From positions 348,272 to 412,271 of the forward strand of contig CAWGNS010000009.1 in the NCBI GenBank assembly GCA_963824095.1: a stretch of DNA of 64,000 nt, given 5' to 3'. The position numbers and the translations under genes were made by a program. Shown in pieces: positions 7,167 through 47,239 of the stretch. Each line of letters starts with the position of its first letter. Within the stretch, counting starts at the first letter, position 1. A model generated the notes under the pieces. The model was not told where the DNA came from. It saw nothing but the letters and a program-made list of their open reading frames with translations, and did no database searches. This DNA is from Terriglobia bacterium. GTDB taxonomy: Bacteria; Acidobacteriota; Terriglobia; Bryobacterales; UBA6623.

Positions 7167-7203
7167 TGCGGCAGGCCGGCGACGGTGCGGCAGGCCCCGG
7201 GCC

Positions 7204-26892: not shown

Positions 26893-27392
26893 CCTTCCTG
26901 GCAGACGGCCCCGCTGGACCGGCGCACAGAAACCTTGAGCCTGCTTGGGGCGTGGTAGTCCGCCGCGCCTTGGGAGGGTAGGTCGTTGGCCGGTCTATCC
27001 CCGAGCTCTCCCCCGGGAGCCCTTTGCTCCCTGGCACGTCCCACGGAAACCTCGTCCTGACGCCGGTTTCCGGGGCGACATCCGGCTGGCTATGCGGATG
27101 TCTGACTATATTCATCGGCTGTTTACATCCAGCCTTTACGGGCGCTGATGTTTGAACGCGGATAGGGCAGAGGGGTCAGTCCAGGGGTCGCTACAGTGGG
27201 GCCCGTGAAGGAAGAAGACAAAGCTGCTGGCGGCGCGGAATGGGATCCCCGCGAGGCGCCACGCTTCGAACCCGGTGGACGACCGAGCGACCGAGGCGTG
27301 AAACCTTGGTGAAGATCCCCAACGAGCGCGGTGGTCCAGACGGGCGGGAGTGTTCCGGGGCCTGGCTCCACGTACCGCCCGTGAAACCATCC

Positions 27393-28982
27393 CTAGCGGT
27401 CGGCCGCGAAGGTCATCATCTCGTACAGCGCGCGCCCCTGCGAGCCGCTGGGGGTCTCGATCTCGAGCAGCGTCGCCAGGCTCGGCGCCAGGTCGTTGAG
27501 CACCACCGAACGCGCGTAAGTGCCGGGCCGGATGCCGGGGCCCAGAAAGATCAGCGGGATGTGGGTGTCGTAGGAATAGGGAGTCCCGTGGGTCGTCCCT
27601 GAGGCGCCGCGAATCCAGTAGGGGTCGAGTAGAATCTCCAGGTCGCCTGAACGCCGCGCGTTGAAGCTGTGCGCCACGCGCTGGCTCACGGTGTCGCTCG
27701 GCGCCTGGCCAAACAGCAACTGCGTGCGCGTGAACACCCGCGCCACGTGCGGCAGGTTTTCGATCGACTGCGCCGCCACACGCTCCACCTCGCCCATCGC
27801 CAGGCCCTTTTCGGCGACCAGCTTGCGGTCGAAATAGGGCGAGGTGCCGGCCGTGGCCTGGACCCAATTTCCGGCGCCGAATCGCGACGTCAGAGCCTCT
27901 TGCATGGTGTCGAACAGCAGCGTGTTCGAAAAGCGCCCGCCCGGCATGTGGTCCTGCTCGAGCCGCTCGGGCACCGGCACCACGCCGTGGTCGGCCGTCA
28001 GCACGACCAGCACGTGCTGCATGCCGATGGCGCTGTCGAGGAAGGCGAACAGCTTGCCCAGAATGCGGTCGCTCTGCACGCTGATGTCGTGCGCCTGCGG
28101 CGAGTCGGGCCCGTATTTGTGGCCCACCGCGTCGTTCGAGGAAAAGCTCACGGTCAGCACGTCGGTGGCGTCGCGCTGGCCCAGCTTTTCCTGGCGTACG
28201 GCGTCTTCGGCGAAACGCTCCAGCAGTTCATTGCCATAGGTGCTCGTGTAAACGGCTTCGTAGAGTTCTGGCCCCGGCGCCGCCGCAAACTTGAGCATGT
28301 TTGCTGCGCCGGCCCCGAACTTCCACTCCACGCCGGCATACTTGTCGGCCTGGCGCTCGCCGTTGAAGGCCGCCACCCAGGCCGGCAGCGTGGGGAAGTA
28401 GTAGGTGCTGCTGACGAACGCCCCGGTTTTCAAATCCAGCCAGTAGGCGCCGTCGGCCATGTGCCCGGCCGGCAAGATCGCGCTGCGGTCCTTGAACGAA
28501 ACCCCGATGACCTTCGAATCGGCACGGCCCGAGCGCTTCAGCTCGTCACCCACCGTGCTCACCAGCAAGCGCCGCGGCGACGAGCCTGTGCCCGGCGAGC
28601 CGCCCAGCAGCTGCACCGACTTATCCGAAACGCTGGTCACCTGCTCGCCCTCTTCGCGGTCGTACCAGTCGTTGCCGACGATGCCGCTGATCTTGGGCGT
28701 CGCCCCCGACAACATCGTCGAGTGGCCCACCGCAGTTACGGTCGGGTAGTGGTCGAGGTTCGCGTTGACGAAATTCGCCCCGGTGCGCAACAGGCGGTCG
28801 AATCCATGGCTGTATTCGGAGCGGAAACGCGTCAGGTAGTCATAGCGGAACTGGTCGATCGCCACCAGCAGCACCAGGCGCACGTCGCCGCCGGGCGCCT
28901 CTTGGGCGCGTAGCAACGAAGGCGAGCCGATCAGCGCGCACGAGACGAGCAGCAGAACTGCCTTGTGGATGAGTTGCTTCAT
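27393..28982 (-). CDS. alkaline phosphatase family protein (nucleotide pyrophosphatase/phosphodiesterase, PafA-like)
   Basis: ORF 27393..29024(-), start ATG 28982 (MKQLIHKAVLLLVSCAL signal). VAIDQFRYDY, PTVTAVGHSTMLSG (Thr nucleophile context), LTADHG. Confidence 0.8.
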   Translation of the reverse strand: MKQLIHKAVLLLVSCALIGSPSLLRAQEAPGGDVRLVLLVAIDQFRYDYLTRFRSEYSHGFDRLLRTGANFVNANLDHYPTVTAVGHSTMLSGATPKISGIVGNDWYDREEGEQVTSVSDKSVQLLGGSPGTGSSPRRLLVSTVGDELKRSGRADSKVIGVSFKDRSAILPAGHMADGAYWLDLKTGAFVSSTYYFPTLPAWVAAFNGERQADKYAGVEWKFGAGAANMLKFAAAPGPELYEAVYTSTYGNELLERFAEDAVRQEKLGQRDATDVLTVSFSSNDAVGHKYGPDSPQAHDISVQSDRILGKLFAFLDSAIGMQHVLVVLTADHGVVPVPERLEQDHMPGGRFSNTLLFDTMQEALTSRFGAGNWVQATAGTSPYFDRKLVAEKGLAMGEVERVAAQSIENLPHVARVFTRTQLLFGQAPSDTVSQRVAHSFNARRSGDLEILLDPYWIRGASGTTHGTPYSYDTHIPLIFLGPGIRPGTYARSVVLNDLAPSLATLLEIETPSGSQGRALYEMMTFAADR

Positions 28983-29668
28983 GGGGTAGGGAATCCTCGC
29001 AGGTTGGAGCAGGTTGCAGGCCAAGCCAAACTTCCCAGTGTAACCCGAAGCGACCCGAGGCTACGGACGCGCTACCCAGCGGTGCCCGGATTGGTGACCT
29101 GGAGAACCCCGCCGCGAGGCGCATCCGAGCCGCATTCGCGCAGGTACGAGGCTCCTTTGCCTTTCGAGCATTGCCAGTAAGTCCCTCCAGCTTTGCCGCC
29201 TCCAACTGTGAGCCCAGTTGTCTCCGGCCCAGCGACCTTGCGTGCCGGCGCCGGGAACGGTTCGGGCGTGCGGGGGCGCATACCCGTCGCAACAACAGGA
29301 GAACATTTTCGTGAGACAAATCGCTCGTGTGTTGAGCAGGGCGATTGCGGCCGGACAATTGACGTACTTCGAACAGGACAAAGGTAGCAAATCCTGCGGG
29401 AGTTTCTGCGCTCGCTCTAGCGCAAGGTGCGGGCGACCTGCCCAAAAAAACGAACGCCGGGACGCGGCCGCCGTTGGTGCTCCCCCCAGGGTATAGCTCC
29501 ACCTGCGTTGCGTCCCGGCGCCGCAACGGGACTCGGACGATCCAGCCCGGAATTCGCAGACTCGATGGGATCCGCGGCAGGATCGTCCGCGCCGCCGTTG
29601 ATGCCGCACGCCGAAGCGGGAGGGGTGTCCGTCCCACCCCCTGGCCGCCAAGCCGGGTGCGGCCAACC

Positions 29669-29986
29669 TCAAGCGCCCGAGACTTCGATGTTGTTCGTCA
29701 CACGCACGACTCCATCGACGTTCTGGGCCAGTTCGCCGGCCCGTTGCTTCACGTCCGCGGTTTGCACCTTGCCGGCCAGGGTCACCACCCCGTCCGTGGT
29801 GTCGACTTCAATGTTGGTGACCGTCGATAGCTGCACGTCGGTCGCCAGCTTCGTCTTCACGGCCGCGGTGATCGCGGCGTCGTCGGCCTGCTGCCCCGCC
29901 GTCTGCGTCGAACTGCAGGCGATGGCGAGGACCAGCGCAAATGCCACCGATAACAGAAACCCTGTGCGGGCGATATGTTTGCTCAT
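29669..29986 (-). CDS. BON domain lipoprotein (OsmY-like)
   Basis: AAGGAGGAAG upstream. Lipobox-like LAIACS. Single BON domain ITAAVKTKLATDVQLSTVTNIEVDTTDGVVTLAGKV...RAGELAQNVDGVVRVTNNIEV. Confidence 0.8.
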   Translation of the reverse strand: MSKHIARTGFLLSVAFALVLAIACSSTQTAGQQADDAAITAAVKTKLATDVQLSTVTNIEVDTTDGVVTLAGKVQTADVKQRAGELAQNVDGVVRVTNNIEVSGA

Positions 29987-30124
29987 GGACTTCCTCCTTG
30001 CACCATGTCTGTCGAATAGTCGGAATGCGGGGCTCGATGCCTTCCGGCCCCGCGGATGGATCAGGTCGGACCCGGCTTGGCCGGAATCCGTGAATGCGTC
30101 CGCATGGCGGCAGAACGCATCGCT

Positions 30125-30280
30125 TCAAACTCTGCCGAGCAGCACCAGCAGCAGCAGCACCAGCACCACCACCCCCAGCCCGCCGCTGGGGTAGTACCCC
30201 CAGGAGGCGCTGTACGGCCATGCCGGAAGTGCGCCGATCAGCAACAGAACCAACAACACGATGACAACTGTGCCCAACAT
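30125..30280 (-). CDS. DUF3309-family small membrane protein (51 aa; below the ORF-track cutoff)
   Basis: Hand translation gives MLGTVVIVLLVLLLIGALPAWPYSASWGYYPSGGLGVVVLVLLLLVLLGRV*. GAGGTG 7 nt upstream of ATG 30280. The WPYS..WGYYPSGGLG core is the DUF3309 hallmark as I recall it. Confidence 0.7.
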   Translation of the reverse strand: MLGTVVIVLLVLLLIGALPAWPYSASWGYYPSGGLGVVVLVLLLLVLLGRV

Positions 30281-30329
30281 TTGTTTCACCTCTCAAGCTT
30301 CACCAGACATTCGCGATCCCTTGGGGCGG

Positions 30330-31373
30330 TTAGGAGCTTGCCCCACGTTTGAGAACCCTGCCGGCGAGTTTCTCGTCCCCGCCGCGGATTGCCAGGTCTT
30401 CGATCGAAATCACACCCACGAACCGGCGGTTGCCGTCGAGCACCAGCAGCCGGCGGCACGGTTTACGCTCCATGATCTCGGCCGCCTGCAGCACGCTCTG
30501 GCTGTCGAGGCAATAGGCGTATTCGGCGGTCATCGCCGAACGCACCGTGGTCTGTGAGGGGTTGGCGCCTTGCGCGGTGGCCCGCACCGTGATGTCGCGG
30601 TCGGTGATCAGCCCCACGACGTCGTCGCCCGAGCGCACCGGCAGGAAACCGACGCCGCGCGCTTCCATCTGCCGCGAAGCTTCGGTCAACGACGCCTCGG
30701 CGTCGATGGTCTCGACCTCGCGGCTCATGGCGTCGCGCACCAGCACCACGCGGACGTGCGCCGGCACGTCGCTCACGCGCACCCTCGCGTGGCCGTCGGC
30801 CGCCGGGGCGCTGGTTTGCGCCCGCGTTAGCGGCTTGGTGCTATTCGCGAAATCCGCGTGCTCTTCCTGCGCCGTGGAGATGTCTTCGGCGCCGCTCTGC
30901 TCTAGAATCTGCCGCGCGTTGCTGGCCCACTGCGAGCTGTCACAATGCACCGACAGGAGAATGCCGCCCTTGCGGATGCGGCCTTCGTAGCGTTTGGCTT
31001 CGTACTCGGGAATGCCCATGCCGACCAGGCCGCCGACCACTCCGCCGACGGTGCCTCCCGCTCCGACCCCAGCCAACAGGCCCAGAATCGGCCCCGCCGC
31101 GACGAACAGCCCCAGCCCGGGAATCGACAGCGTGCCGATCCCCACCAGCCAGCCGAGCACGCCGCCCACAACGGCGCCCGAGCTCGCCCCGGCCGTTACG
31201 CCCTCGGGCGCTTTGGTGCTCTTCTCGTGCGCCAGATCTTTCGAGCCGGCGTTCTCGGGAAACAGCACCGATATGTCGGTATTGCGAAAACCGTGCGCGC
31301 GCAGGGCTTCCACCCCTTCCTCGGCGCCCGCCCGGCTCGCATAGATGCCAAAAACCGCAATGTTCTTTGTCAT
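30330..31373 (-). CDS. fusion protein: YflT/general-stress-like N-domain + glycine-zipper membrane segment + C-terminal CBS pair
   Basis: AAGGAGG upstream. MTKNIAVFGIYASRAGAEEGVEALRAHGF (YflT-like), GAVVGGVLGWLVGIG...GVGAGGTVGGVVGGLVGMG, IPEYEAKRYEGRIRKGGILLSVH, then two CBS repeats (VRDAMSREVETID...GFLPV; VRSAMTAEYAYC...LLVLD..RFVGVISIEDL). Confidence 0.75.
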   Translation of the reverse strand: MTKNIAVFGIYASRAGAEEGVEALRAHGFRNTDISVLFPENAGSKDLAHEKSTKAPEGVTAGASSGAVVGGVLGWLVGIGTLSIPGLGLFVAAGPILGLLAGVGAGGTVGGVVGGLVGMGIPEYEAKRYEGRIRKGGILLSVHCDSSQWASNARQILEQSGAEDISTAQEEHADFANSTKPLTRAQTSAPAADGHARVRVSDVPAHVRVVLVRDAMSREVETIDAEASLTEASRQMEARGVGFLPVRSGDDVVGLITDRDITVRATAQGANPSQTTVRSAMTAEYAYCLDSQSVLQAAEIMERKPCRRLLVLDGNRRFVGVISIEDLAIRGGDEKLAGRVLKRGASS

Positions 31374-31400
31374 AGCAAAACCTCCTTGCTCTTGCCGCCC

Positions 31401-32204
31401 TCAAAAGCCTTGATCCGAACTGCCGGCCTGCACCGTCAGTTCGTTGTGCACTTTTCCGGCGCCCGCCGCCGCCACGGCTTTGGCCTCGATATCCTGCCGT
31501 TCCGCTTCGCTGCGCACAACGCCCTTGAGCGTCACCCGCCCGTCGCGGCTGATGATCTTCACGTTGTGCGCGTAAGTCGAAAGCGTTTTATCCGCGACCA
31601 CCGCCCGCCGGATCGTCCGTGTCAACTGACGGTCTGAGGCGGTATTGCCCTGGTCATCGGCGGTGAGTCCCTGCTTCGATGCGGTCGTGCTTTTCGCTTC
31701 CTTCGTAACACCGAGAAACACGCTGGCCATCGGATCGCACGACGGTGCAATCTGTTCCACCTTCGTCGCATGGAACACCCGGCCATCGCCTTCCTTGTCG
31801 CCATAGACGCGAACCATGCGGTCTATGTAGTTCTCCAGATCGGGCGAGCCGACGACGGTAATGCGGTCGCCGCCGCCGTCTTCCTTCTCGGTAAGAATGT
31901 AGGGATCGCTCTCGTCGCCGCGCGTCAGGCATCCACGCTTCTCCATGCCTAACGTTTCCTTTAGCTTCTCGCCGGTCTTTTCCAGCGCCTTCCCGACTTC
32001 CTGCTTGGTTTCTTCTAAGGACTTCGATATGGACTCATCCTTATCCCGCTTATCCTGGGTGGCGCCCGCCGTTGATTGAGTGTCGCTGTTTTCCACCTGC
32101 CCGCTGGCGGCTTCTTGTGCCGTCGCGACGGTTCTTGTTTGGGGGTAAGACACTCCCCCCGCAGTCAACGTAACGGCGATGGCAAGAACGATGTGCCGTG
32201 TCAT
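31401..32204 (-). CDS. secreted protein with C-terminal BON domain
   Basis: GGGAGG upstream. Signal peptide MTRHIVLAIAVTLTAGG. Acidic/Lys-rich region. C-terminal BON (IRRAVVADKTLSTYAHNVKIISRDGRVTLKGVVRSEAERQDIEAKA). Confidence 0.7.
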   Translation of the reverse strand: MTRHIVLAIAVTLTAGGVSYPQTRTVATAQEAASGQVENSDTQSTAGATQDKRDKDESISKSLEETKQEVGKALEKTGEKLKETLGMEKRGCLTRGDESDPYILTEKEDGGGDRITVVGSPDLENYIDRMVRVYGDKEGDGRVFHATKVEQIAPSCDPMASVFLGVTKEAKSTTASKQGLTADDQGNTASDRQLTRTIRRAVVADKTLSTYAHNVKIISRDGRVTLKGVVRSEAERQDIEAKAVAAAGAGKVHNELTVQAGSSDQGF

Positions 32205-32657
32205 GATTGCCTCCCTGCCACGGCCCGCGGCCGGCGAAAGCGTCCGGTCCGGTTGGCCGTGGGGTTACGCCCCGTAGATCCCAGACTGCGTTCTTGCGTT
32301 ACTGGGTTCGTTTCCTGCGACGGGCGTCCCCCCGCGCCCCCGCGTGCTGACTGCCCATATCCCCGCTCGGAGCGGCAGGCGCCAGCCCGCGCGGTTTCGT
32401 TGGCCGGATTGCAGTGCCTGAATTTGCACGGTGAGGTACGGCGAAGTAGGGTCAAGCCGCACTTGCGTGAGCGGACGCCCGCGGCTCCAGGGTTGGTGAT
32501 TTTTCGTTGAGTAAATGTCCCCGGGAAATACGCCGCAATTATTGGACAACAGAGTACGAAACCTCACCCGAAAACCATGGCGGTTCGCAGGCCGCGGACA
32601 CAGCCTCGAGCGGTCGTGAGTCTACAGAGCAACTAGCGCTCACCAAAGGAGGTAGAG

Positions 32658-33458
32658 ATGCATCGATTTACAGTTCATTTTTTGGTCGGTTGCCTAGCCA
32701 CCGTTGGTCTGGCGGCCATGCTGCAAGCGGATGCCTGGAATAAAAAGACCGAGCTTACGGTCCACGAAAAAGTGGAAGTTCCCGGCGCGGTCCTGTCTCC
32801 TGGCAAATACGTTGTCAAACTCGTGAATTCCGAATCCAACCGCCACATCGTGCAATTTACGAATGAGGCGGAAAATCAGGTGGTTTCCACGGTGTTGGCA
32901 ATCCCGAACCAGCGCATGGAACCTACTGGCGACAGCGAGTTCACGTTTTACGAATCGCGCGTCGCGGGCACACCGGTGTTGCGCGCCTGGTTCTATCCGG
33001 GTGACACCTTCGGGCAACAGTTCGCTTATCCGAAGGATAAGGCGATCGAACTGGCAAGGGCCTCCGGCGAGGACGTGCCTTCGCTCGACGGTGACGATCT
33101 TTCGTCGGCGCATGTGAGCACGGTTTCGCCTAATGAATCGGAACCGGCCACGCCGCCGCAAGAAAGCGCGGTGACACCGGCCCCGCCGCTGGGGCGAACG
33201 CACACGCAGCCCGCGGCCCCCAAGCCCGAGCCGGCGCCCGACACCACGACATTGGCGCAAGCGCAGCCTCAGGAACAGCCTCCGGCTCGCACGCCGGCAG
33301 CCGCCGCACCGGCTCCTCAGACCACGCAACAGCCTGAGGCCGGCGAACAGCTTCCTTCGACCGCCAGCCCGGCTCCGCTGCTGGGACTGCTGGGCCTGCT
33401 GTCGCTGGCTGGAGCTTTGGGTCTGAACAGGGTGGCCAAGCAACGCGACTCGCGTTAG
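32658..33458 (+). CDS. secreted protein with C-terminal sortase-type sorting signal (LPSTAS + hydrophobic + basic tail)
   Basis: AAAGGAGG 6 nt upstream. Signal peptide ..AAMLQA/DA. ~130-aa unknown domain. ~90-aa P/A/Q-rich linker. LPSTAS at 33351-33368 followed by PAPLLGLLGLLSLAGALGL and NRVAKQRDSR. Confidence 0.7.
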   Translation: MHRFTVHFLVGCLATVGLAAMLQADAWNKKTELTVHEKVEVPGAVLSPGKYVVKLVNSESNRHIVQFTNEAENQVVSTVLAIPNQRMEPTGDSEFTFYESRVAGTPVLRAWFYPGDTFGQQFAYPKDKAIELARASGEDVPSLDGDDLSSAHVSTVSPNESEPATPPQESAVTPAPPLGRTHTQPAAPKPEPAPDTTTLAQAQPQEQPPARTPAAAAPAPQTTQQPEAGEQLPSTASPAPLLGLLGLLSLAGALGLNRVAKQRDSR

Positions 33459-33681
33459 CCGCCAGCCCGGGCATCGCGCTCCACCCAACCATACTTCCAG
33501 GAGAGCAGCGGTGAACACCAAGACCCAAGCCAAGCGGGGAGCAAGAGCAACGCTCTTGTTCCCCGCCGCGCCCGAACACCAACACCGCCAGCCGCGGGAT
33601 CAGCGCCGTCGGGCGACCGAAAGCGCCGCCGCCCGACCCAGAGCATTGTCGCGATCCGAAGCAAAGTCGCCCGACCCAAAG

Positions 33682-33716
33682 CAACAGAGCCGCGGGCGGG
33701 AGCCTGCGGGCTCTCG
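33682..33716 (+). repeat. repeat family D copy between substrate and sortase genes
   Basis: caacagagccgcgggcgggagcctgcgggctctcg (hairpin agagcc-gc.../...gggctct). Confidence 0.6.
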
Positions 33717-33815
33717 CGAATCCGCGGCACGGCACACGGTGGCCCCGGCTGATTCGACCTGGCCCAGCCGAAAACGGCTTGATCTGCCACCGGCACGGGC
33801 AAGGATACGGAACCC

Positions 33816-34529
33816 ATGGTGCACCTAAGAATCCAAGGCCATAGCGAAGTCCGCCTGCTGCGAGGCGCCATCACCCTGCTGCTGGCCGCCGGGCTGGTTT
33901 GCCTGGCCCTATTCTTCTGGTACACATTCGAGGCCCAATACTCCCAGGCCTTGCTCCGCCACGAATTCGATGCGCAACAGAACAACTCCGTATCAACCCC
34001 ATCGCCCAATCCGGCGCCGCCACCGCCCGCTAAACATCCGATGCTCGTGGGCCGCCTCGAAATCCCCAGGCTCGGGGTCGAAGTCATGGTCGTCAACGGA
34101 GCCGATGCTGCCAGCTTGCGGGAAGGCGCCGGCTGGCTGCCCAACACCGCCTGGCCCGGCGACGGCAACGCCGCCATCGCCGCGCACCGCGACACGTTCT
34201 TTCGCCCGCTGCGCCACATCCGGCAAGGCGACACGGTGCTGCTGACCACGCGCGACGCCCGCTACCGCTTCCGCGTCGAGTGGACCGCCGTGGTCGACCC
34301 CGACGACACCGCGATCTTGCGGCCCACCGACGAGCCCGCGCTCACGCTCATCACCTGCTATCCGTTCTACTACGTCGGCAGCGCTCCGCAACGCTTCATC
34401 GTCCGCGCCGCCCGGCAACAACCGCTCGATGGCCCCGCCGCGAAATTGTTCCAGGGCGAGCAGCCTCCCGCCGCGTGTTCGTTCGGACCCCACGGCGGCC
34501 CCGGAAACCTGAGCGGAGCCGCCGATTGA
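33816..34529 (+). CDS. sortase family transpeptidase (membrane-anchored)
   Basis: N-terminal TM anchor (AITLLLAAGLVCLALFFWY). LEIPRLGVEVMVVNG. His context GNAAIAAHRDTFF. Cys context ALTLITCYPFYY. Arg context QRFIVRA. Confidence 0.8.
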   Translation: MVHLRIQGHSEVRLLRGAITLLLAAGLVCLALFFWYTFEAQYSQALLRHEFDAQQNNSVSTPSPNPAPPPPAKHPMLVGRLEIPRLGVEVMVVNGADAASLREGAGWLPNTAWPGDGNAAIAAHRDTFFRPLRHIRQGDTVLLTTRDARYRFRVEWTAVVDPDDTAILRPTDEPALTLITCYPFYYVGSAPQRFIVRAARQQPLDGPAAKLFQGEQPPAACSFGPHGGPGNLSGAAD

Positions 34530-34551
34530 ATCGAGGCGAGGCCTTCGACGT

Positions 34552-34574
34552 GGGACAGGCAATCTTGTCTGTCC
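34552..34574. repeat. repeat family B single palindrome
   Basis: gggacaggcaatcttgtctgtcc, 23 nt after the sortase stop. Confidence 0.7.
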
Positions 34575-34732
34575 TCTCCATGACTCGGGCCAATGGCTGC
34601 AGCAAGGCCGGCCCTGCCGGCCAGAAGCCCGCGCCAAATCAAACAAGCGGAGAAGCGCCTGCGCCAACCGCGCGCGTCTGAATCCGCGTCGGACTAGGAC
34701 ATCACGCCAGAATCGGTCAGACTAGAAGCATC

Positions 34733-35926
34733 GTGCCGTCTCTACTCAGCGACCTCGGCCCCCTCGAAATCCTCGACATCGCGCTCGTGGCCCTGTTCGC
34801 CTACGTGCTCATCATTTCGATGAAACGTGCCCGGGCCGGCCTCACGCTGGTCGGCATTCTCATGCTGGGCGGCGTCTATCTGGCGGCGCGCGCGATCGGC
34901 CTACAGCTCACCGCCTGGATTCTGCAAGGTTTTTTCGCCGCCATCCTGATCATGCTGGTCGTTCTGTTTCAGCGCGACCTGCGGCAGTTGTTCGAGCGCA
35001 TCGCCGTCTGGACGCTGCGCCGCAACACCGGCGTGTCCACTTCCGACGAGGCCGTGCTCTGCCTGGTCGATGCCCTGCGGACTCTGGCGCGCCGCCGCCA
35101 CGGCGCCCTGCTGGTCCTGCCCGGCAAAGATCCCCTCGACCGCCACATCGAGGGCGGCGTCGAACTGGAGGGCCGCGTCAGCTCGCCGCTGCTGATGAGC
35201 CTGTTCGACCCCGACTCGGTGGGCCACGACGGCGCGGTGATCGTCGACGGCGACACGGTGACGCGCTTCTCGGTGCATCTGCCGCTCTCGCGCGATTTCG
35301 ATCAACTCGGCCAACTCGGCACGCGCCACGCCGCCGCGCTCGGCCTCGCCGAACTCTCCGACGCCTTGTGCCTGGTGGTATCCGAAGAGCGCGGCGAAAT
35401 CTCGGTGGCGCGCAATCACCTGCTGCGCCTGCTGCCGACCCGCGAGGCGCTCGAAGACGAGATCGAGCAATTCGTCCAGACCAAGCGAAGGCCCCCCAAC
35501 GAGGGCCGCTCGCTGATTTCGTTTCTCACGACCAACTGGCTCGAAAAAGCCACCGCCGTGGGCCTGGCGCTGGGACTGTGGGTGGTGTTCGTCTCGGGAG
35601 GGCAGGGCGTCCGCCGCGAGCGTGAAGCCCCGGTGCTGGTCGACAACGTGCCCCCCGCCTTCGAAATCAGCGCCGTGACGCCCAAGCAAGTCCAAGTAAC
35701 CCTTTCGGGGCCGCGCCGCGAATTCTATACCCTCGCCGATACCGACCTCGAAGTTCGCGTCGACGGCTTCCTGGCCGGCTTGGGCCGCAGGACCTTCCGC
35801 ATCGACCCCCAGGACGTCCGCCACCCCGAGGGCCTCACCGTGCTGAGCGTAAGCCCGGCGACCGTCACGTTAACCGTCACCCGAATATCCCCAAGCCAAC
35901 CAACGCCGCCCGCGGCAAGCCCCTGA
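34733..35926 (+). CDS. cdaA: diadenylate cyclase CdaA fused to a C-terminal TM + YbbR(CdaR)-like domain
   Basis: GTG start. Three N-terminal TM helices. DAC domain HGALLVLPG...GHDGAVIV (DGA)...LGTRHAAALGLAELSDALCLVVSEERGEISVA (RHR position reads RHA). Then TM ATAVGLALGLWVVFV and a YbbR-like beta domain (VLVDNVPPAFEISAVTPKQVQVTLSGPRRE...). Confidence 0.8.
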   Translation: MPSLLSDLGPLEILDIALVALFAYVLIISMKRARAGLTLVGILMLGGVYLAARAIGLQLTAWILQGFFAAILIMLVVLFQRDLRQLFERIAVWTLRRNTGVSTSDEAVLCLVDALRTLARRRHGALLVLPGKDPLDRHIEGGVELEGRVSSPLLMSLFDPDSVGHDGAVIVDGDTVTRFSVHLPLSRDFDQLGQLGTRHAAALGLAELSDALCLVVSEERGEISVARNHLLRLLPTREALEDEIEQFVQTKRRPPNEGRSLISFLTTNWLEKATAVGLALGLWVVFVSGGQGVRREREAPVLVDNVPPAFEISAVTPKQVQVTLSGPRREFYTLADTDLEVRVDGFLAGLGRRTFRIDPQDVRHPEGLTVLSVSPATVTLTVTRISPSQPTPPAASP

Positions 35927-35936
35927 GCGGCCCCAT

Positions 35937-35982
35937 GTAGGGTAGGCGCTCGCGCCTGCCGCGCCGGAAGCGGCGCCCGCCC
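35937..35982 (+). repeat. repeat family F copy
   Basis: gtagggtaggcgctcgcgcctgccgcgccg + gaagcggcgcccgcc. The 30-nt core is identical to 36533-36562. Confidence 0.85.
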
Positions 35983-36150
35983 CGGCCCAAGTCCACGCGG
36001 GAAGGGACAGTTCGCCGGTGTTTCGCCATCGATTGTTGAGCCGCTGGCGGGCGATTGGTGGGGAGCGGAGCAAGGCTTACAGTATTCGAGGGCTTCGGCC
36101 GCCGGGCAACGAATCGCTTTTTCGCTGCCTGGGCCATCCCAGCGATCACG

Positions 36151-36507
36151 TCACCCCAGCACCCATCGCCAAATCTCGGCGACAAGGCCCACCACAAACA
36201 GCGTCCCGAAGATCGCCTTGTTGTGCCGCGCAATGAACACCGGAAGATAGATATCGAAGTTATCGGAGCGGTCGTCGGTAAACCGCGCCGCAAGATCGGT
36301 AAGCGGGCAGCGGCCTCGATGGAACGCCAGCACCGCGCATTCCATCAAAACGAACGAGGTAAGAATCGCGGCCAAATCCAGAAGCCCCCGCCAGGCCAAG
36401 AAAGGCAGAGCCACAATACACCCCGCAAAGAAAGCCCAGATCACCGTATGCAGAAGCCGAATAGCAACAAGCGCCACAACGCGATTATCGCGCAGCGAAA
36501 AATGCAA
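36151..36507 (-). CDS. small membrane protein (CPLT-motif, DUF2784-like?)
   Basis: 3' part of ORF 36151..36900(-). The upstream part of that ORF runs through repeats F and G, so a TTG (36507) or GTG (36477) start is assumed. Hydrophobic helices (VVALVAIRLLHTVIWAFFAGCIVALPFLAW, LDLAAILTSFVLMECAVLAF), RCPLTDL. Confidence 0.4.
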   Translation of the reverse strand: MHFSLRDNRVVALVAIRLLHTVIWAFFAGCIVALPFLAWRGLLDLAAILTSFVLMECAVLAFHRGRCPLTDLAARFTDDRSDNFDIYLPVFIARHNKAIFGTLFVVGLVAEIWRWVLG

Positions 36508-36532
36508 TGCGGCGTGCCAATGGAAAGCGATA

Positions 36533-36578
36533 GTAGGGTAGGCGCTCGCGCCTGCCGCGCCGCAAACCGGCGCCCGCC
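36533..36578 (+). repeat. repeat family F copy
   Basis: gtagggtaggcgctcgcgcctgccgcgccg + caaaccggcgcccgcc. Direct repeat of 35937. Confidence 0.85.
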
Positions 36579-36582
36579 TTTG

Positions 36583-36614
36583 CCGATCAACCGATCGACG
36601 GATCAACCGGCTCA
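36583..36614 (+). repeat. repeat family G: 8-bp tandem array CCGATCAA-like x4
   Basis: ccgatcaa ccgatcga cggatcaa ccggctca. Lies 75-100 nt upstream of the + strand gene starting 36689/36713. Confidence 0.75.
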
Positions 36615-36688
36615 TTCTTGAGCCCCCCGCGCGTTGCGGGCCGCCGCGCGTTCGGCTTACACTCGGGCGCTGGGTTCGACGAACCAGG

Positions 36689-38476
36689 ATGTCGACGAAC
36701 GGGGGTAGGGCCATGGTCCAACGAATGTGCTTGCCTGCGCCGCGAGCCGCGGCCGCACGCGGCGTCGCGGCGATCGTCGCGGTTTTCTTTGCGGTATTGC
36801 TTGGCGCCCAGCCGGCTCCGCAGCCAGCCCCGCAACAGGCCGCGCGCGCGCAGCCCGAGCCTCCGGCGCCGCCCGCCGACGTATCGGTCGAGGCCGACAT
36901 CGACTACTCCAATGTCGGCGGCCGCATGCAGATGGACGTTGTCCGCCCGCTGCGCGGCAATGGCCCCTTCCCGGCCGTGGTCTGCATCCATGGCGGCGGC
37001 TTCCGCGCCGGCACGCGGCAGAGTTTTCTGCCCATCGCCTACTACCTGGCGCAGCACGGCTACGTCGCTGCCACGGTGACTTACCGCCTCAGCCCGATGA
37101 ATCAGTTTCCCGCGCCGGTCGAGGACGTCAAGGCCGCGGTGCGCTTTCTGCGCGCCAACGCCGCGCGCTTCGATGTCGACCCCGATCGTATCGGCACGGT
37201 CGGCGGCTCGGCGGGCGCCCATCTGGCGTTGATGCTCGGCGTCACGGGCGGCGTGGCCGAATTCGAGGGCTCGGGCCCGAATCTCGATCGCTCCAGCCGC
37301 GTCCAGGCCGTGGTGAGTCTCTATGGGCCGACCGATTTCACCAAGTCCTACGAGCCGGGCAAGAGCGTCGACGCAGCCGAGGTGCTGCCGATGTTTCTGG
37401 GCGGCGATCTCGAGCACAACCGACCGGCGCATCTGCGCGCCAGTCCGCTCTTTTGGGTGAGCCCCGACAGCGCGCCGACACTGGCCGTCCACGGCACCAA
37501 GGACAACTACGTCGCCTATGAGCAGGCCGTGTGGATAACCGAGCGTCTGGAGGCGGCCGGCGTCCCCACCAAACTCGAAACGATCGAAGGCGCCGGCCAC
37601 GGTTTTCACGGCGCTGATCTCGAACGGGCCAAGACGGCGATGCTGGCCTGGTTCGACGAATATCTGGCGCCGCGCTCCACCCAACGCTTGTTGCTGGTCG
37701 CCGATCACGGTCCGCGGGGTGAAATCGTCGCGCTCGACTGGCCCTCGGGCCGCGAGCGCTGGACGCTGCCCAATAACCACGGCCACGACGTACAGCTTCT
37801 ACCCAACGGCCACGTCCTCTACACCACCGGCGACTGGCGCCGCGTCGTCGAGGTCGATCCGCGCAAGATCGGCGGCGGAAACGAAGAGGTCTGGAGCTAT
37901 GGCCTCGCCGAGGGCCTCAAACATCCGGTCGCCGCCGAACGCCTCTCGAATGGCAACACCGTCATCGGCGACATGGAACTCGGCGAAGTCATCGAGGTGG
38001 ACGCGGCGGGCAAGATGGTCTGGGAATACAAGAACCCCGAGATGGCCGGACATCGCATGCGCAGCGTGCGGCGCACCGCCGAAGGCACCACCTTGATTGC
38101 GATCGAGCGGCTCAATAAGGTGATCGAGGTCGACCCCGGCGGCAAGATCATCTGGACCTTCCACGCCACCGGCGGCGACGAGCGCTTTCCCTACCAGGCG
38201 CATCGGCTCCCCAACGGCAACACGCTGATCGGCATGGCCGCGCCCGGCGAAGTCGTCGAAGTGGCCCCCGACGGCAAGATCGTGCGCTCGGTCGGCGGCC
38301 TCAACGACGCGCTGCGCATGGCCTGGTGCTCGGGGCTCGAGCCTCTCCCGGGAGGAGGCTTTATCGTTTCGGATTACACCGGCAGGCGCTTGCTCGAATT
38401 CGATCCAGACTGGAAAATCGTTCACGAACTGCGTATGGGCCCACGCACCATAGCCAGCGTGTCGCTGATCCCCTAG
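36689..38476 (+). CDS. alpha/beta hydrolase (esterase/lipase-like) fused to a C-terminal beta-propeller domain
   Basis: Start ATG 36689 or 36713. Signal-like segment. HGGGF oxyanion motif (CIHGGGFRAG), GGSAGA nucleophile elbow, HGTKD, GAGHGF. C-terminal ~260 aa with repeated ..G..VIEVD..GKIVW.. blades. Confidence 0.75.
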   Translation: MSTNGGRAMVQRMCLPAPRAAAARGVAAIVAVFFAVLLGAQPAPQPAPQQAARAQPEPPAPPADVSVEADIDYSNVGGRMQMDVVRPLRGNGPFPAVVCIHGGGFRAGTRQSFLPIAYYLAQHGYVAATVTYRLSPMNQFPAPVEDVKAAVRFLRANAARFDVDPDRIGTVGGSAGAHLALMLGVTGGVAEFEGSGPNLDRSSRVQAVVSLYGPTDFTKSYEPGKSVDAAEVLPMFLGGDLEHNRPAHLRASPLFWVSPDSAPTLAVHGTKDNYVAYEQAVWITERLEAAGVPTKLETIEGAGHGFHGADLERAKTAMLAWFDEYLAPRSTQRLLLVADHGPRGEIVALDWPSGRERWTLPNNHGHDVQLLPNGHVLYTTGDWRRVVEVDPRKIGGGNEEVWSYGLAEGLKHPVAAERLSNGNTVIGDMELGEVIEVDAAGKMVWEYKNPEMAGHRMRSVRRTAEGTTLIAIERLNKVIEVDPGGKIIWTFHATGGDERFPYQAHRLPNGNTLIGMAAPGEVVEVAPDGKIVRSVGGLNDALRMAWCSGLEPLPGGGFIVSDYTGRRLLEFDPDWKIVHELRMGPRTIASVSLIP

Positions 38477-40621: not shown

Positions 40622-40685
40622 CCCGAAGCGGGACGCGGCAAAGCGGGAGGTTCACGCCACGGGCAACCGGTCTGGCTTCGGGTGC
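40622..40685 (+). repeat. repeat family A partial copy 5
   Basis: cccgaagcgggacgcggcaaagcgggaggttcacgccacgggc...gcttcgggtg. Fills the gap between two convergent stops. Confidence 0.6.
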
Positions 40686-42769
40686 TACTCGCCCTTCAGC
40701 AGCCCTTTCGCCGTGGCCACCACCAAATCCGGCTCGAACCCAAACTTGGTTTGCAGCTCTTTGAGCGGGGCCGACGCTCCAAACGTGTGCATGCCGATGA
40801 CGCGGCCCGCGTCACCGACATAACGCTCCCACCCGAACGTCGAGGCCTGCTCGATCGCCACGCGGGCTTTCACCTTGCGCGGCAGCACGCTCTCGCGGTA
40901 GTCGGCCGGCTGGCGGTCGAAGATATCCCAGGAGGGCATCGACACCACGCGCGAACGCACGCCGCCGGCGGTCAGCTTTTCGTGGGCGTCGGCCGCCAGA
41001 CTCAGCTCGCTGCCCGTGGCGATCAAGATTACCTCGGGGTCGGCGCCCGGGGCGTCGGCCAGCACGTAGGCGCCGCGAGCCACGCCCGACGCCGGCGCGT
41101 ACTTATTGCGGTCGAGCGTTGGCAGCGCCTGCCGCGAAAGCACCAGCGCCGCCGGTTGATGCCGCAGTTGCAGGATGTAGCGGTAAGCCTCGACGACTTC
41201 GTTGGCGTCGCCGGGGCGCAGCAGGACCAGACCGGGGATGGCGCGCAGCGAAGCGAGCTGTTCCACCGGCTGGTGGGTGGGGCCGTCTTCGCCGTCGCCC
41301 ATCGCGTCGTGGGTGAATACGAAAATCGTGGGCAGCTCCATCAGCGCCGAAAGCCGGATCGCCGGCCGAGCATAGTCGCTGAAGATGAAAAACGTCGCGC
41401 CGTAGGCCCGCAGCTTCGACAGCGACATGCCGTTGACCACCGCCGCCATGGCGTGCTCGCGGATGCCGAAGTGCAGGTTCTTGCCGCCGGGGCTGTCGGG
41501 CTCGAAATCGCCGGCGCCGTCGTAGGTCAACAGCGTGCGGTTCGAGGGCCCCAGGTCGGCCGAGCCGCCCAGCAGCCATGGCACGTTCTGCGCCAGAACG
41601 TTGAGCGCCTTGCTCGAAGCGTCGCGGCCGGCCAGGCCCTTGGGGTCGGCGGGAAACGCCGGCAGGTTGCGGTCCCAGCCGTCGGGCAACTCGCGTCGCT
41701 GCATGCGGTCGATCTCGCCGGCCAGCTCGGGATATTTGCCGCGGTATTCAGCGAACTGCGCTGTCCAGTTTTCGCGGGCCCGGGCGCCGCGCTTGCCGAC
41801 GCCGTCGGCGAAATGCTCGTAGACGCCGTCGGGAACCAGGAACTGAGCATCCTCGGGCCAGCCGTAGCTGCGTTTGGTGAGGCGGACCTCCTCGTCGCCC
41901 AGCGGCTCGCCGTGGGCCGCCGCCGTATCCTGCTTGTTCGGAGAGCCGTAGCCGATGTGGCTGTCGAGAATGATCAGCGTGGGGCGAGCCGTGGTTTCGC
42001 GGAAAACTTTCAGCGCGTGGCCGATGCGGTCGATATCGTTGGCGTCGCCGACGCGCAGCACGTTCCAGCCGTAGCCGAGAAAGCGCGCGGCGACGTCTTC
42101 GGTGAAGGTGATGCTCGTGTTGCCTTCAATGGTGATGTGGTTGTTGTCGTAGATCCAGCAGAGGCTGTCGAGGCGCAGGTGGCCGGCCAGCGAGGCGGCT
42201 TCGGACGCAACGCCCTCCATCAGGCAGCCGTCGCCGCACACGGCGTAGACGTTGTAGTCGAATACGGCGAACTCGGCCCGGTTGTAGCGGTGCGCCAGCC
42301 ATTTTTGGGCGAGGGCCATGCCGACACTGGTAGCGACACCCTGGCCGAGCGGCCCGGTAGTCGTCTCGACGCCCGAAACCCAGTGGTACTCGGGGTGGCC
42401 GGGCGCCTTGCTGTCGAGCTGCCGGAAGTGGCGAATATCGTCGAGCGTCACCGAGGGCTGCCCCAGCCGCTCGTAATCGGCGTTGACGGCCTGCGTGCGC
42501 GTCAGGTGGAGCACCGACCACAGCAGCATCGAGGCGTGGCCGTTCGACAGCACGAAGCGGTCGCGATTGGGCCAGATGGGGTCCCGCGGATCGAACCGCA
42601 TCTCGCGGTTCCACAGCGTGTAGACAAGCGGCGCAAGCGCCATTGGCGTGCCGGGGTGCCCCGACTTCGCCTTCTGCACGGCATCGATCGACAGCGTCCG
42701 GATCGTATTGATACAGAGCTGGTCGAGGTCGACGGTGGTCGCGGTTTCCGCAAGCTCTCCGACGCTCAT
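40685..42769 (-). CDS. tkt: transketolase
   Basis: ORF 40685..42898(-), start ATG 42769 (MSVGELAE). SGHPGTPMALAP, RDRFVLSNGHASMLLW, GPLGQG, GDGCLMEG, FTHDAMGDGEDGPTHQPVE. Confidence 0.95.
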   Translation of the reverse strand: MSVGELAETATTVDLDQLCINTIRTLSIDAVQKAKSGHPGTPMALAPLVYTLWNREMRFDPRDPIWPNRDRFVLSNGHASMLLWSVLHLTRTQAVNADYERLGQPSVTLDDIRHFRQLDSKAPGHPEYHWVSGVETTTGPLGQGVATSVGMALAQKWLAHRYNRAEFAVFDYNVYAVCGDGCLMEGVASEAASLAGHLRLDSLCWIYDNNHITIEGNTSITFTEDVAARFLGYGWNVLRVGDANDIDRIGHALKVFRETTARPTLIILDSHIGYGSPNKQDTAAAHGEPLGDEEVRLTKRSYGWPEDAQFLVPDGVYEHFADGVGKRGARARENWTAQFAEYRGKYPELAGEIDRMQRRELPDGWDRNLPAFPADPKGLAGRDASSKALNVLAQNVPWLLGGSADLGPSNRTLLTYDGAGDFEPDSPGGKNLHFGIREHAMAAVVNGMSLSKLRAYGATFFIFSDYARPAIRLSALMELPTIFVFTHDAMGDGEDGPTHQPVEQLASLRAIPGLVLLRPGDANEVVEAYRYILQLRHQPAALVLSRQALPTLDRNKYAPASGVARGAYVLADAPGADPEVILIATGSELSLAADAHEKLTAGGVRSRVVSMPSWDIFDRQPADYRESVLPRKVKARVAIEQASTFGWERYVGDAGRVIGMHTFGASAPLKELQTKFGFEPDLVVATAKGLLKGE

Positions 42770-42783
42770 GGTTTTCCTTTCGA

Positions 42784-44202: not shown

Positions 44203-44221
44203 GAGAATACCTTCCTTGTGC

Positions 44222-45241: not shown

Positions 45242-45347
45242 TGTGCGTTCTCCTTCCAGCGACGAGGCGGCGTTTCCTCGTCGTTTAGCGATGTTGTCGG
45301 GTGAGCGCCCGGCGTTGGGATAGCCGGCGGCCGCCGGGGGCCGGGCT

Positions 45348-46991: not shown

Positions 46992-47201
46992 GGTCGTAGT
47001 CCTTCGGAGCCAAAGGCGGCGAGGCCGCTTTTCCTGTTGCCGGACACTGCCGGCGGTTCTTATTGCCGGAAGCCGCCGCGACCCGGGCGGCGCTCGGGCG
47101 AAAAACAACCGGTGGCAGCGGCGGCCGGAGTGCGCTGCCGCTGTCTTATCGGCAACCGCTCGCGCCCGGCGAGGCGCGATTTCCTGCGGCAAGGGCGGCA
47201 A

Positions 47202-47239
47202 GGGGACAGTCACCGTGTTTCGCGCCCCGCGAATCCTGG
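47202..47239 (+). repeat. repeat family C copy
   Basis: ggggacagtcaccgtgtttcgcgccccgcgaatcctgg. Confidence 0.8.

Follow-up and report, generated by a model that had tools for sequence, protein, structure and literature searches.

Does the close grouping of a CBS-domain protein, a sortase, its substrate and a diadenylate cyclase on acidobacterial DNA mark a c-di-AMP-linked envelope module, or do separable systems share a neighbourhood there? The question concerns positions 29669 to 35926 of a 64,000-nucleotide stretch from a Terriglobia bacterium (hereafter the window), which a previous sequence-only reading had interpreted as such a module. Our analysis partly supports that reading. We lean towards a clade-restricted neighbourhood in which three separable units, all related to the envelope, are loosely linked without making up an obligate module.

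Gene content of the locus

Pfam and NCBIfam models applied to the window ORFs recovered every gene described previously, each in its place and including both BON proteins; a 51-aa DUF3309 gene had been overlooked (Table 1). The minus-strand genes run in the order BON, YflT/DUF3341-2TM-CBS, DUF3309, BON lipoprotein, and the plus-strand genes in the order substrate, sortase, CdaA_N-DAC-TM-YbbR fusion, with gaps of 357 and 203 bp. What had been called a sortase pair does contain a sortase and a substrate, but it is one enzyme with one LPSTAS protein, not two sortases. The CBS and diadenylate cyclase genes are indeed the only ones of their kind in the window: an iterated CBS HMM and a DAC HMM, each run on all six-frame ORFs, gave one match apiece, and Pfam scans of 49 window ORFs gave no further CBS or DAC. 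Their starts lie 3.36 kb apart, in agreement with the spacing of ~3.4 kb given before. The divergent intergenic region yielded no sigma-70-like promoter, convincing terminator or Rfam match; a ydaO (c-di-AMP) riboswitch was also looked for and is absent.

Table 1. Features of the locus, in window coordinates
Feature	Position	Strand	Size and model scores
BON-domain lipoprotein, last cassette gene	29669..29986	-	105 aa; Pfam BON 65.2 bits
DUF3309 small membrane protein	30125..30280	-	51 aa; PF11752
YflT/DUF3341-2TM-CBS membrane protein, putative stress protein	30330..31373	-	347 aa; CBS 80 bits, YflT 26.3 bits
Secreted BON-domain protein, first cassette gene	31401..32204	-	267 aa; Pfam BON 46.5 bits
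Divergent intergenic region, cassette / sortase-substrate gene	32205..32657		453 bp
Sortase substrate, LPSTAS	32658..33458	+	266 aa; Gram_pos_anchor 19.4 bits, cut-off 20
Membrane-anchored sortase, class D-like	33816..34529	+	237 aa; Pfam Sortase 108.9 bits
Diadenylate cyclase CdaA with cis-fused YbbR	34733..35926	+	397 aa; DAC 113.1 bits

The CBS protein and its cassette

The 347-aa protein starts with a YflT/DUF3341-like domain that a Gly-zipper membrane hairpin interrupts (residues ~60–120, with hydrophobic segments at 66–117), then has a linker and a CBS pair (205–340). Pfam YflT narrowly exceeds its cut-off of 26.2 bits, ActD scores 24.5 bits, and the CBS score is spread over two stretches. 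AF2 models the CBS pair at pLDDT above 90 and assembles the N-domain from residues 5–37 plus 138–169; none of the solved structures searched spans the N-terminal half. That half by itself is a very common acidobacterial family (~70% identity), whose stand-alone members go by the names “DUF3341 domain-containing protein”, YflT / general stress protein 17M, and ActD of alternative complex III. Full-length homologues number about 30, and the CBS fusion to DUF3341 is rare, found in a handful among 449 50%-identity clusters with E ≤ 1e-30. Since both domain orders exist, the CBS pair looks like a regulatory add-on.

Both CBS motifs retain the G-x-x-[ST]-x-x-D ribose-binding pattern, at positions that are invariant or nearly so (G254/T257/D260 and G320/S323/D326). 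The closest solved pairs are those of the Burkholderia 9z6r protein, Hrp1/Rv2626c, and AMP-, SAM- or ATP-binding pairs. A DarB/CbpB- or OpuCA-type identity was not supported: the pair has no specific sequence relationship to these or to MgtE and resembles the Hrp1/Rv2626c type; DarB/CbpB is neither in the best 60 sequence matches nor in the best 50 fold matches. Such missing similarity does not disqualify c-di-AMP as a ligand, because the CBS pairs of OpuCA, DarB/CbpB and MgtE, the last of these listed as a c-di-AMP-binding protein in B. subtilis, themselves bind it by dissimilar modes (PMC9293649, PMC10636490). We regard c-di-AMP binding by the window pair as plausible if quite improbable, and on present evidence AMP/ATP-type ligands appear at least as likely.

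Among its cassette partners, the 105-aa BON protein begins with a hydrophobic segment (residues 5–23) followed by Cys24, its signal peptide ending ...LAIAC, and the 267-aa protein bears a C-terminal BON domain (190–259). Of the 10 CBS-fusion loci, 8 have a homologous BON gene immediately upstream of DUF3341, as do 43 of the 80 standalone loci. The DUF3309 gene, called with PF11752 on an identical Logan contig (L001), is also found 3′ of the CBS-protein gene in L006, L169, L170 and the P0007 locus; in the last two, the 105-aa BON gene again comes after DUF3309. The core conserved across loci is BON-DUF3341(±CBS)-DUF3309. Elsewhere its neighbours include typical general-stress genes (DUF892/YciF-like, Csp, CsbD, MgtC, PRC, ECF sigma); these, together with the family names, point to a probable stress role for the cassette.

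Sortase, substrate and CdaA-YbbR

The substrate comprises a signal peptide, a conserved beta-rich domain of ~110–130 aa, a Pro/Ala/Gln-rich spacer, the LPSTAS motif, a hydrophobic stretch and a basic tail. Its homologues number more than 1300; among them L232, P233, T235 and A236 vary little or not at all, and the motif reads LPxTA[SG]. The AF2 model of the domain (pLDDT 84–95) found no match in the PDB by Foldseek (best E 0.67). The sortase has a TM segment at residues 17–35 and, among NCBIfam models, scores best with NF058671 (“class D sortase, LPxTATN-specific”), where its 138.5 bits fall just short of the 140 required. Its translation shows His (in AAHRDTFF), Cys (in LITCYPF) and Arg (in RFIVRA).

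CdaA also matches Pfam CdaA_N (27.2 bits) and YbbR (24.0 bits, cut-off 22.3), and stays below the cut-off of TIGR00159 (169.8 versus 188.8 bits). Three N-terminal TMs (~residues 10–79) precede the DAC domain, a fourth TM (275–293) and YbbR; the DGA motif is at 166 and RHA at 198. This ~400-aa CdaA-YbbR architecture occurs in 77 of the 80 cdaA-anchored loci from many phyla that served as our control set, and is spread over many Gram-negative phyla.

Linkage among relatives and in other phyla

As a conserved unit the 6.3-kb stretch did not hold up. Only 3 of the 10 CBS-fusion loci, representing 2 of 9 lineages, have cdaA within 10 kb; it is missing from the available 5.6–10 kb flank of the other seven, including P0005, P0007 and P0008 (73%, 68% and 65% identity). 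A sortase is near the cassette in 4 of the 10. Adjacency of cassette and cdaA does return in relatives, but none of the 80 control loci has the DUF3341-CBS fusion or a sortase. In L002–L004 (57% / 53% identity) cassette and cdaA diverge just as in the window, with other genes between them, while L008, a close relative, has the whole block with both flanks unrelated to those of the window. L170 keeps the cassette and sortase pair together in a different arrangement, with a VWA protein between substrate and sortase. The surroundings of cdaA vary among relatives: OmpA/PKD is upstream in L172, L009 has an OsmY-like BON gene 78 bp upstream, and nothing related is present in L029.

In the control loci, CBS ORFs lying over 1.5 kb away from cdaA number 3 in 869 kb. 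At that density ~2% of genomes would have a CBS gene within ±3.4 kb of cdaA through chance alone; the proximity in this single window is unusual but not compelling. Other phyla show an enrichment of CBS genes directly beside cdaA (6 of 9 within ~1 kb, P≈0.003–0.01). They are MgtE and small CBS pairs, in Spirochaetales, Phycisphaeraceae, a MAG labelled Actinomycetes and Deltaproteobacteria/Smithella MAGs. The DUF3341 loci offer a second contrast: cdaA is nearby in 3 of 10 fusion loci but in none of the 29 standalone loci that span 5 kb or more (hypergeometric P≈0.013, or 0.05 with the window and L008 counted once), a hint that having the CBS domain is associated with proximity to cdaA. Two lineages place cassette and cdaA within 3.5 kb of each other in the same divergent topology with no further shared synteny; at a chance of ~0.1% per lineage, some selective or historical tie must exist.

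Interpretation

Were the locus a true c-di-AMP envelope module, CdaA-YbbR would sense the envelope, the DUF3341 CBS pair would be a c-di-AMP receptor controlling the BON proteins, and their joint function would keep the genes together. The recurrences in L002–L004 and L008, the BON gene beside cdaA in L009, the CBS genes adjoining cdaA in other phyla and the varied modes of c-di-AMP binding by known CBS pairs all speak for this. Against it, besides the seven fusion loci with cdaA-free flanks, the DUF3341-CBS gene and cdaA of Bryobacteraceae TGS_ACI2 are on separate contigs, the fusion is missing from cdaA relatives of 71%, 67% and 46% identity, the linked lineages do not form a single clade, and outside the window's subclade no sortase adjoins cdaA in the loci examined; the Hrp1-type affinity of the CBS pair and the absent riboswitch weigh on the same side. 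We consider such a module unlikely. The adjacency might instead be coincidental or purely historical, an ancestral gene order partly eroded around functionally unrelated parts. The cassette stands alone in most loci, cdaA contexts differ widely even among relatives, neither the plus-strand gaps nor the divergent spacer gives a sign of tight co-transcription, and a coincidence in a single window has the ~2% chance given above. Yet the window shares with L002, L008 or L170 the module genes only, which argues against plain residual synteny, and pairings of cassette with cdaA, cassette with sortase and BON with cdaA return in varied arrangements; we find this account rather doubtful too.

The loosely linked neighbourhood of three units, our preferred reading, has to accommodate the two-lineage tie, the fusion/standalone contrast and the enrichment of CBS genes by cdaA, all of which count against it. 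The minus-strand genes would make up a general/osmotic-stress cassette, in which both BON proteins and the small peptide may act at the periplasmic or membrane side, while the DUF3341 protein would put its glycine-zipper hairpin into the inner membrane and the cytoplasmic CBS (Bateman) pair would bind an adenine nucleotide and switch the state of the membrane part. The dedicated sortase and its single LPxTA[SG] substrate probably form an independent surface-anchoring system. The third unit would be a housekeeping c-di-AMP synthase with its regulator domain in cis; because YbbR follows the fourth TM helix, it is predicted to lie in the periplasm, where it could couple envelope state to c-di-AMP synthesis. 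The CBS pair has c-di-AMP as a possible ligand, and CdaA may signal to the CBS protein. Because close relatives show the grouping only here and there, this link is a testable, weakly supported idea.

Comparison with known systems

The N-terminal 185 residues of the CBS protein are ~60–70% identical to hundreds of stand-alone proteins of the acidobacterial BON-DUF3341 two-gene cassette, from which the window differs by a CBS pair appended in few clusters only. The window BON proteins share the BON domain and a signal peptide or lipoprotein signal with OsmY and DolP (YraP), but each has a single BON domain, and the OsmY/DolP NCBIfam equivalogs match only partially (55 versus a cut-off of 174, and 42 versus 184).

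Rv2626c (hypoxic response protein 1) is associated with stress or dormancy. With 9z6r, 4fry and Atu1752 it is among the nearest solved relatives of the window CBS pair (E 1e-13 to 1e-29; TM-score 0.88–0.90 on the target; 28–35% identity); these are soluble stand-alone proteins of ~130 aa, whereas in the window the pair forms the C-terminal part of a membrane protein. DarB/CbpB, OpuCA and MgtE share the Bateman (CBS-pair) module with canonical ribose-binding motifs, and in OpuCA and MgtE, as may be the case here, the CBS pair controls a membrane protein (PMC9293649, PMC10636490). The window pair is joined to a DUF3341/YflT membrane hairpin instead of a transporter, and OpuCA (5ks7) ranks only 36 among matches to it, with CBS2 alone aligned.

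Like class D (NF058671) and class GN “marine” sortases, the window enzyme is N-terminally anchored, has His, Cys and Arg, and adjoins a single substrate with an LPxTA-type signal. Its motif is LPxTA[SG]-P, not the LPxTATN of NF058671, and the N-terminal domain of the substrate belongs to no described family.

CdaA resembles the enzyme of the Firmicutes cdaA-cdaR(ybbR)-glmM operon, known as dacA-ybbR-glmM in S. aureus and exemplified also by B. subtilis and L. monocytogenes, in its three N-terminal TM helices, its DAC domain with DGA motif and a YbbR-domain regulator outside the cytoplasm (PMC8316131, PMC6368335). It differs in having RHA in place of RHR, no glmM downstream, and one YbbR fused in cis after a fourth TM instead of a separate multi-YbbR CdaR.

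Gene content of the locus

GC3-based gene calling and an ORF listing, combined with Pfam and NCBIfam scans, resolve 29669-35926 into a minus-strand cassette and, across a divergent spacer, plus-strand genes for a sortase substrate, a sortase and the diadenylate cyclase CdaA. The sequence-only reading took the CBS gene and the DAC gene to be the only ones of their kind in the 64-kb window, and this was borne out: no others came up when all six-frame ORFs were searched with a DAC HMM and an iterated CBS HMM, or in Pfam scans of 49 ORFs. Its “sortase pair” is indeed a surface-anchoring pair, but one made up of a sortase and its substrate rather than of two sortases. The DUF3309 gene (30125-30280, minus strand) was absent from its list; such a gene also lies 3′ of the CBS-protein gene in four of the related loci compared here (L006, L169, L170 and the P0007 locus). 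Both BON proteins contain the BON domain PF04972 (65.2 and 46.5 bits) and begin, in translation, with a hydrophobic leader typical of an export signal. A consensus promoter and terminator scan of the locus was uninformative, and a GTAAC...TCT motif suggested by the sequence upstream of the BON genes was not upheld when sought as a pattern, either within the window or across another 19 upstream regions.

Features of the locus in the window, and CBS genes lying near cdaA in other sequences
Sequence	Feature	Position	Strand	Basis or relation to cdaA
Window	105-aa BON lipoprotein	29669-29986	-	Pfam
Window	51-aa DUF3309 membrane peptide, between the CBS protein and BON lipoprotein genes	30125-30280	-	
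Window	347-aa CBS protein: YflT/DUF3341-like N-terminal domain, glycine-rich membrane hairpin (~60-120), C-terminal CBS pair	30330-31373	-	Pfam
Window	Secreted 267-aa protein, C-terminal BON	31401-32204	-	Pfam
Window	Divergent spacer, 453 bp, between minus-strand cassette and plus-strand genes			
Window	266-aa sortase substrate: signal peptide, C-terminal LPSTAS, hydrophobic stretch, basic tail	32658-33458	+	
Window	Membrane-anchored sortase	33816-34529	+	Best model class D, LPxTATN-specific
Window	397-aa CdaA: three N-terminal TM helices, DAC, fourth TM helix, YbbR	34733-35926	+	
L027	MgtE	11168-12484		4 bp downstream
L085	MgtE	5768-7171		11 bp upstream
L050	MgtE	9738-11054		1 kb downstream
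L012	148-aa stand-alone CBS pair	2832-3278		Upstream
L036	148-aa stand-alone CBS pair	9082-9528		Upstream
L042	148-aa stand-alone CBS pair	12-458		Upstream

The sortase scores 108.9 bits against PF04203, with the catalytic His (AAHRDTFF), Cys (LITCYPF) and Arg (RFIVRA) in its translation, and narrowly misses the cut-off of the class D model NF058671 (138.5 versus 140 bits). The C-terminus of the substrate is a tripartite sorting signal, LPSTAS followed by PAPLLGLLGLLSLAGALGL and then NRVAKQRDSR, in which L, P, T and A of the sorting motif are invariant or nearly so in 28 homologues; the Pfam anchor model falls just below its cut-off (19.4 versus 20). The substrate family (alignment A3), for which neither Pfam nor NCBIfam has a model, numbers more than 1300 uncharacterised members of ~250 aa, and the LPxTA[SG] signal is conserved among them. 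Conservation is strong in the N-terminal beta-rich domain (WFYPGD.FGQEFAYP), which is confidently predicted (pLDDT 84-95) but which Foldseek matches to nothing in the PDB (best E 0.67).

CdaA scores 113.1 bits for the DAC domain (PF02457; cut-off 27) and 27.2 bits for CdaA_N (cut-off 23.8), with hydrophobic segments at residues 4-79. It misses the TIGR00159 equivalog cut-off (169.8 versus 188.8 bits), though this is still the top-scoring model (residues 12-247). Of the catalytic motifs, DGA is at residue 166, and the second reads R198-H-A instead of RHR (residues 198-200, window 35324-35332); since S, G or A occupies the third position across the ~400-aa CdaA-YbbR family (pattern GTRH[SGA]AALGL), the RHA variant is family-wide. 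YbbR lies inside the protein, at residues 301-382, and downstream lie a 249-aa ORF without family assignment and an ORF for a BD-FAE hydrolase. The YbbR protein of Firmicutes, CdaR, is described in PMC8316131 as extracytoplasmic and as acting via the membrane domain of CdaA; by analogy, the fourth TM helix would place the YbbR of the window protein in the periplasm.

This fused architecture of ~400 aa is common beyond the window locus. Homologues are abundant at ~50% identity and 95-100% coverage, and a profile search of genome contigs with the CdaA alignment (A2) retrieved 80 cdaA loci, 77 of them with a YbbR-like C-terminus, from Deltaproteobacteria, Myxococcota, Binatia, Elusimicrobiota, Latescibacterota, Spirochaetes, Planctomycetes and others; the same contigs gave no match with the single CdaA protein as query. 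The genomes nearest to the window belong to Bryobacterales, in the Acidobacteriota. We found no description of the cis-fused form in the literature searched, though it is widespread in databases, and nothing there on c-di-AMP signalling in Acidobacteriota; to our knowledge, such signalling is known almost wholly from Firmicutes and Actinobacteria.

As to other clues to c-di-AMP, neither a ydaO-type riboswitch nor any other Rfam family matches the window at the gathering score, and the region 27000-37500 has no match at E<=1. Just past the cassette lies a PF01663 protein (27393-29024, minus strand), of the same Pfam family as the c-di-AMP phosphodiesterase AtaC (PMC7132281). We rejected it as an AtaC-like enzyme because it has a signal peptide and aligns over its full length with PafA (E 3.5e-99, PDB 5tj3) and PhoK, both alkaline phosphatases, and from its sequence assign it as a secreted PafA/PhoK-like alkaline phosphatase. 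A CitMHS-family transporter with two TrkA_C/RCK_C domains is encoded 14 kb from cdaA (49644-51443, minus strand); RCK_C domains are among the known binders of c-di-AMP as a class. Elsewhere the window encodes an MscS-type mechanosensitive channel, an HD_5/HD-domain protein and a pentose-phosphate cluster of transketolase, G6PD, 6PGD-like and PGI genes (1671-2888(-), 3928-5736(+), 40685-47252(-)).

Linkage across related loci

We compared ten loci that carry the CBS fusion, with flanks of 5.6-10 kb on each side of the CBS gene, and in three of them, representing two of nine lineages, cdaA lies within 10 kb. The cdaA-linked state is not monophyletic in a neighbour-joining tree, where the window protein clusters with relatives that lack the linkage and P0017 falls in a different clade.

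The ten CBS-fusion loci and their neighbours, with identity to the window CBS protein unless stated
Locus	Identity	Cassette	Sortase system	cdaA
Window	100%	BON, CBS, DUF3309, BON	Substrate and sortase adjacent	3.36 kb
L008	CBS 77% over intact N-terminal half, cdaA 83%	On frameshifted long-read contig	Substrate and sortase	Yes, block whole
L002-L004 (P0017)	57%	BON, CBS, 51-aa gene	No sortase	2.5 kb, divergent; DUF6962 and CREG-like gene between
L169 (P0005)	73%	Yes	No sortase	None in flank
P0007 locus	68%	Yes	No sortase	None in flank
L170 (P0008)	65%	Yes	Substrate, VWA, sortase, convergent downstream	None in flank
L005 (P0021)	55%	CBS only, without BON	No sortase	None in flank
L006 (P0024)	56%	Yes	Sortase ~6 kb off	None in flank
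L007 (P0028)	55%	Yes	No sortase	None in flank
L171 (P0022)	52%	CBS only, without BON	No sortase	On other contig (L029)

Starting from cdaA, neither a DUF3341-CBS fusion nor a sortase was found in any of the 80 cdaA-anchored loci, and both are absent beside the cdaA genes of L172 (71%), L009 (67%) and L029 (46%). As a control set, a metagenome scan with the fusion alignment (A1) yielded stand-alone DUF3341 genes only, matching residues 3-190: a BON gene lies directly upstream in 43 of these 80 loci and cdaA occurs in none, 29 of the 80 being at least 5 kb. With cdaA linkage this patchy from both anchors, the 6.3-kb stretch does not hold up as a conserved unit; the unit that is conserved is BON-DUF3341(±CBS)-DUF3309(-BON).

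Where parts of the neighbourhood do recur, general synteny is ruled out as the source. When whole loci were compared with the 64-kb window by tblastn, the module genes were all that L002, L008 and L170 had in common with it and their other flanking genes differed, so the recurrences are not a by-product of wider colinearity. The window and L002 have the same divergent cassette-cdaA topology with unlike filler genes, and in L170 the cassette and the sortase pair are again together, differently arranged and with a VWA protein between substrate and sortase. In L125 (14929-19757) and L135 (3470-7924), too, a stand-alone DUF3341 gene has homologues of the sortase and its substrate at a distance of 1-5 kb; these flank two genes, one for an Nramp-like transporter and the other encoding ~590-650 aa. 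Four pairs of equal-sized contigs from the same source are circumstantial candidates for being single contigs: CBS protein P0002 with substrate P0243 (4308 bp), P0361 with P0242 (10155 bp), CdaA P0123 with substrate P0258 (3774 bp), and P0362 with P0253 (5903 bp). If so, they would add cassette-substrate and substrate-cdaA adjacencies.

Two other neighbours were observed. In L009, a Bryobacterales MAG, an OsmY-like two-BON gene (9309-9878) lies 78 bp upstream of cdaA (9992-11191) on the same strand, with no DUF3341-CBS gene near. Four related loci, L006 (13878-16819), L008 (14397-16788), L170 (1402-5412) and L173 (4698-7396), have an MlaE-MlaF-MlaD lipid-transport operon no more than a few kb away from either the cassette or cdaA; the operon does not occur in the 64-kb window.

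The CBS fusion protein and its putative ligand

The CBS protein has two tandem PF00571 domains (80 bits in two stretches), and the pair is modelled by AF2 at pLDDT >90 and matched by Foldseek to many CBS pairs at probability 1.0. Two segments of the model, residues 5-37 and 138-169, form the N-terminal domain around the inserted membrane hairpin; the YflT match of this domain is barely above the gathering score (26.3 versus 26.2) and its ActD match below it (24.5 versus 25.7). There are ~30 full-length homologues at 50-77% identity, and the N-terminal 185 residues have hundreds of stand-alone acidobacterial DUF3341 homologues at ~60-70% identity. In a 50%-identity representative library, no more than a handful of clusters join DUF3341 to CBS; the fusion is a rare variant within a family that is common and itself uncharacterised. 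Two clusters have the reverse order (P0416 and P0514, with the CBS pair N-terminal and DUF3341 matched in a second stretch), which suggests that the modules fused independently there.

Both CBS motifs retain the canonical G-x-x-[ST]-x-x-D pattern. By sequence and fold, the nearest solved pairs are Burkholderia 9z6r, Mycobacterium tuberculosis Hrp1/Rv2626c and AMP-, SAM- or ATP-binding pairs; DarB/CbpB is not among the best 60 profile matches or the best 50 fold matches, and OpuCA 5ks7 ranks 36th (E 2e-9), by its CBS2 part only. Because the high ranks are held only by generic CBS pairs, we dropped ligand typing by sequence and fold. CBS pairs bind c-di-AMP by widely differing modes with no common signature (PMC9293649), so the CBS sequence speaks neither for nor against this ligand.

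An iterated CBS HMM found nine CBS-containing ORFs in the 80 cdaA-anchored loci, six of which lie within ~1 kb of cdaA, a zone that makes up 20% of the sequence (binomial P 0.003; 0.01 with two near-identical loci merged). Three of the six encode MgtE, a listed c-di-AMP-binding protein of Bacillus subtilis (PMC10636490, PMC9293649), and three a stand-alone CBS pair. The enrichment, together with the reported binding by MgtE, lends general support to the idea that cdaA-adjacent CBS genes may be receptors, and such an enrichment across phyla is by itself a cheap, testable lead.

Interpretation

All components of the locus are from known families, most of its content is ordinary and the comparative evidence is patchy. 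On balance we lean slightly toward reading it as three envelope-related units that share a loosely linked, clade-restricted neighbourhood: the cassette, which would serve in general or osmotic stress and whose membrane protein carries a putative adenine-nucleotide-sensing CBS pair; an independent sortase-substrate system; and a housekeeping CdaA with its cis-fused YbbR as a presumed periplasmic sensor domain. The stress role of the cassette is suggested by how its families are named (general stress protein 17M for YflT, an OsmY-type domain for BON) and by neighbours in other loci (DUF892, Csp, CsbD, MgtC, PRC and an ECF sigma factor).

The stronger proposal, of a CBS pair that acts as a c-di-AMP effector in a locus working as one functional unit, we consider possible but unlikely: the CBS genes beside cdaA in other phyla are in its favour, and the absence of the fusion from the cdaA-anchored loci weighs against it. 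About as likely is pure coincidence, or eroded ancestry without function; the unlinked fusion loci agree with this, and the recurrence of the module genes between unlike flanks in L002, L008 and L170 tells against it. Improbable as a whole, yet the most far-reaching, is the view of DUF3341/YflT-CBS as a candidate new class of membrane-embedded c-di-AMP receptor in Acidobacteriota. Here CdaA would sense the periplasm through its cis-fused YbbR, the c-di-AMP that it makes would bind the CBS pair and so switch the glycine-zipper membrane module, and under osmotic or desiccation stress this module, working with the BON proteins, would protect the envelope or remodel it.

The locus offers a concrete and cheap biochemical test. 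If the CBS-tagged DUF3341 protein bound c-di-AMP, it would be a first receptor candidate in Acidobacteriota, a major soil phylum, and would give a handle on the role of the very common, uncharacterised BON-DUF3341 stress cassette; were the full receptor scheme true, cdaA-adjacent CBS genes (MgtE, small CBS pairs) would predict c-di-AMP receptors across Gram-negative phyla. If it did not bind, genes for stress, surface anchoring and housekeeping signalling would lie side by side here in an ordinary juxtaposition.

Comparison with known systems

The window CBS pair has no specific sequence or structure relationship to the c-di-AMP-binding CBS families DarB/CbpB, OpuCA and MgtE. Genomic linkage to c-di-AMP metabolism would support membership among such receptors rather than define it, and here it is patchy. 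The sortase system differs from that of class D sortases specific for LPxTATN (NF058671) in that the substrate family motif here is LPxTA[SG]P. In contrast to the cdaA-cdaR-glmM operon, no glmM follows cdaA, and YbbR is fused in cis to the cyclase rather than encoded by a separate cdaR gene.
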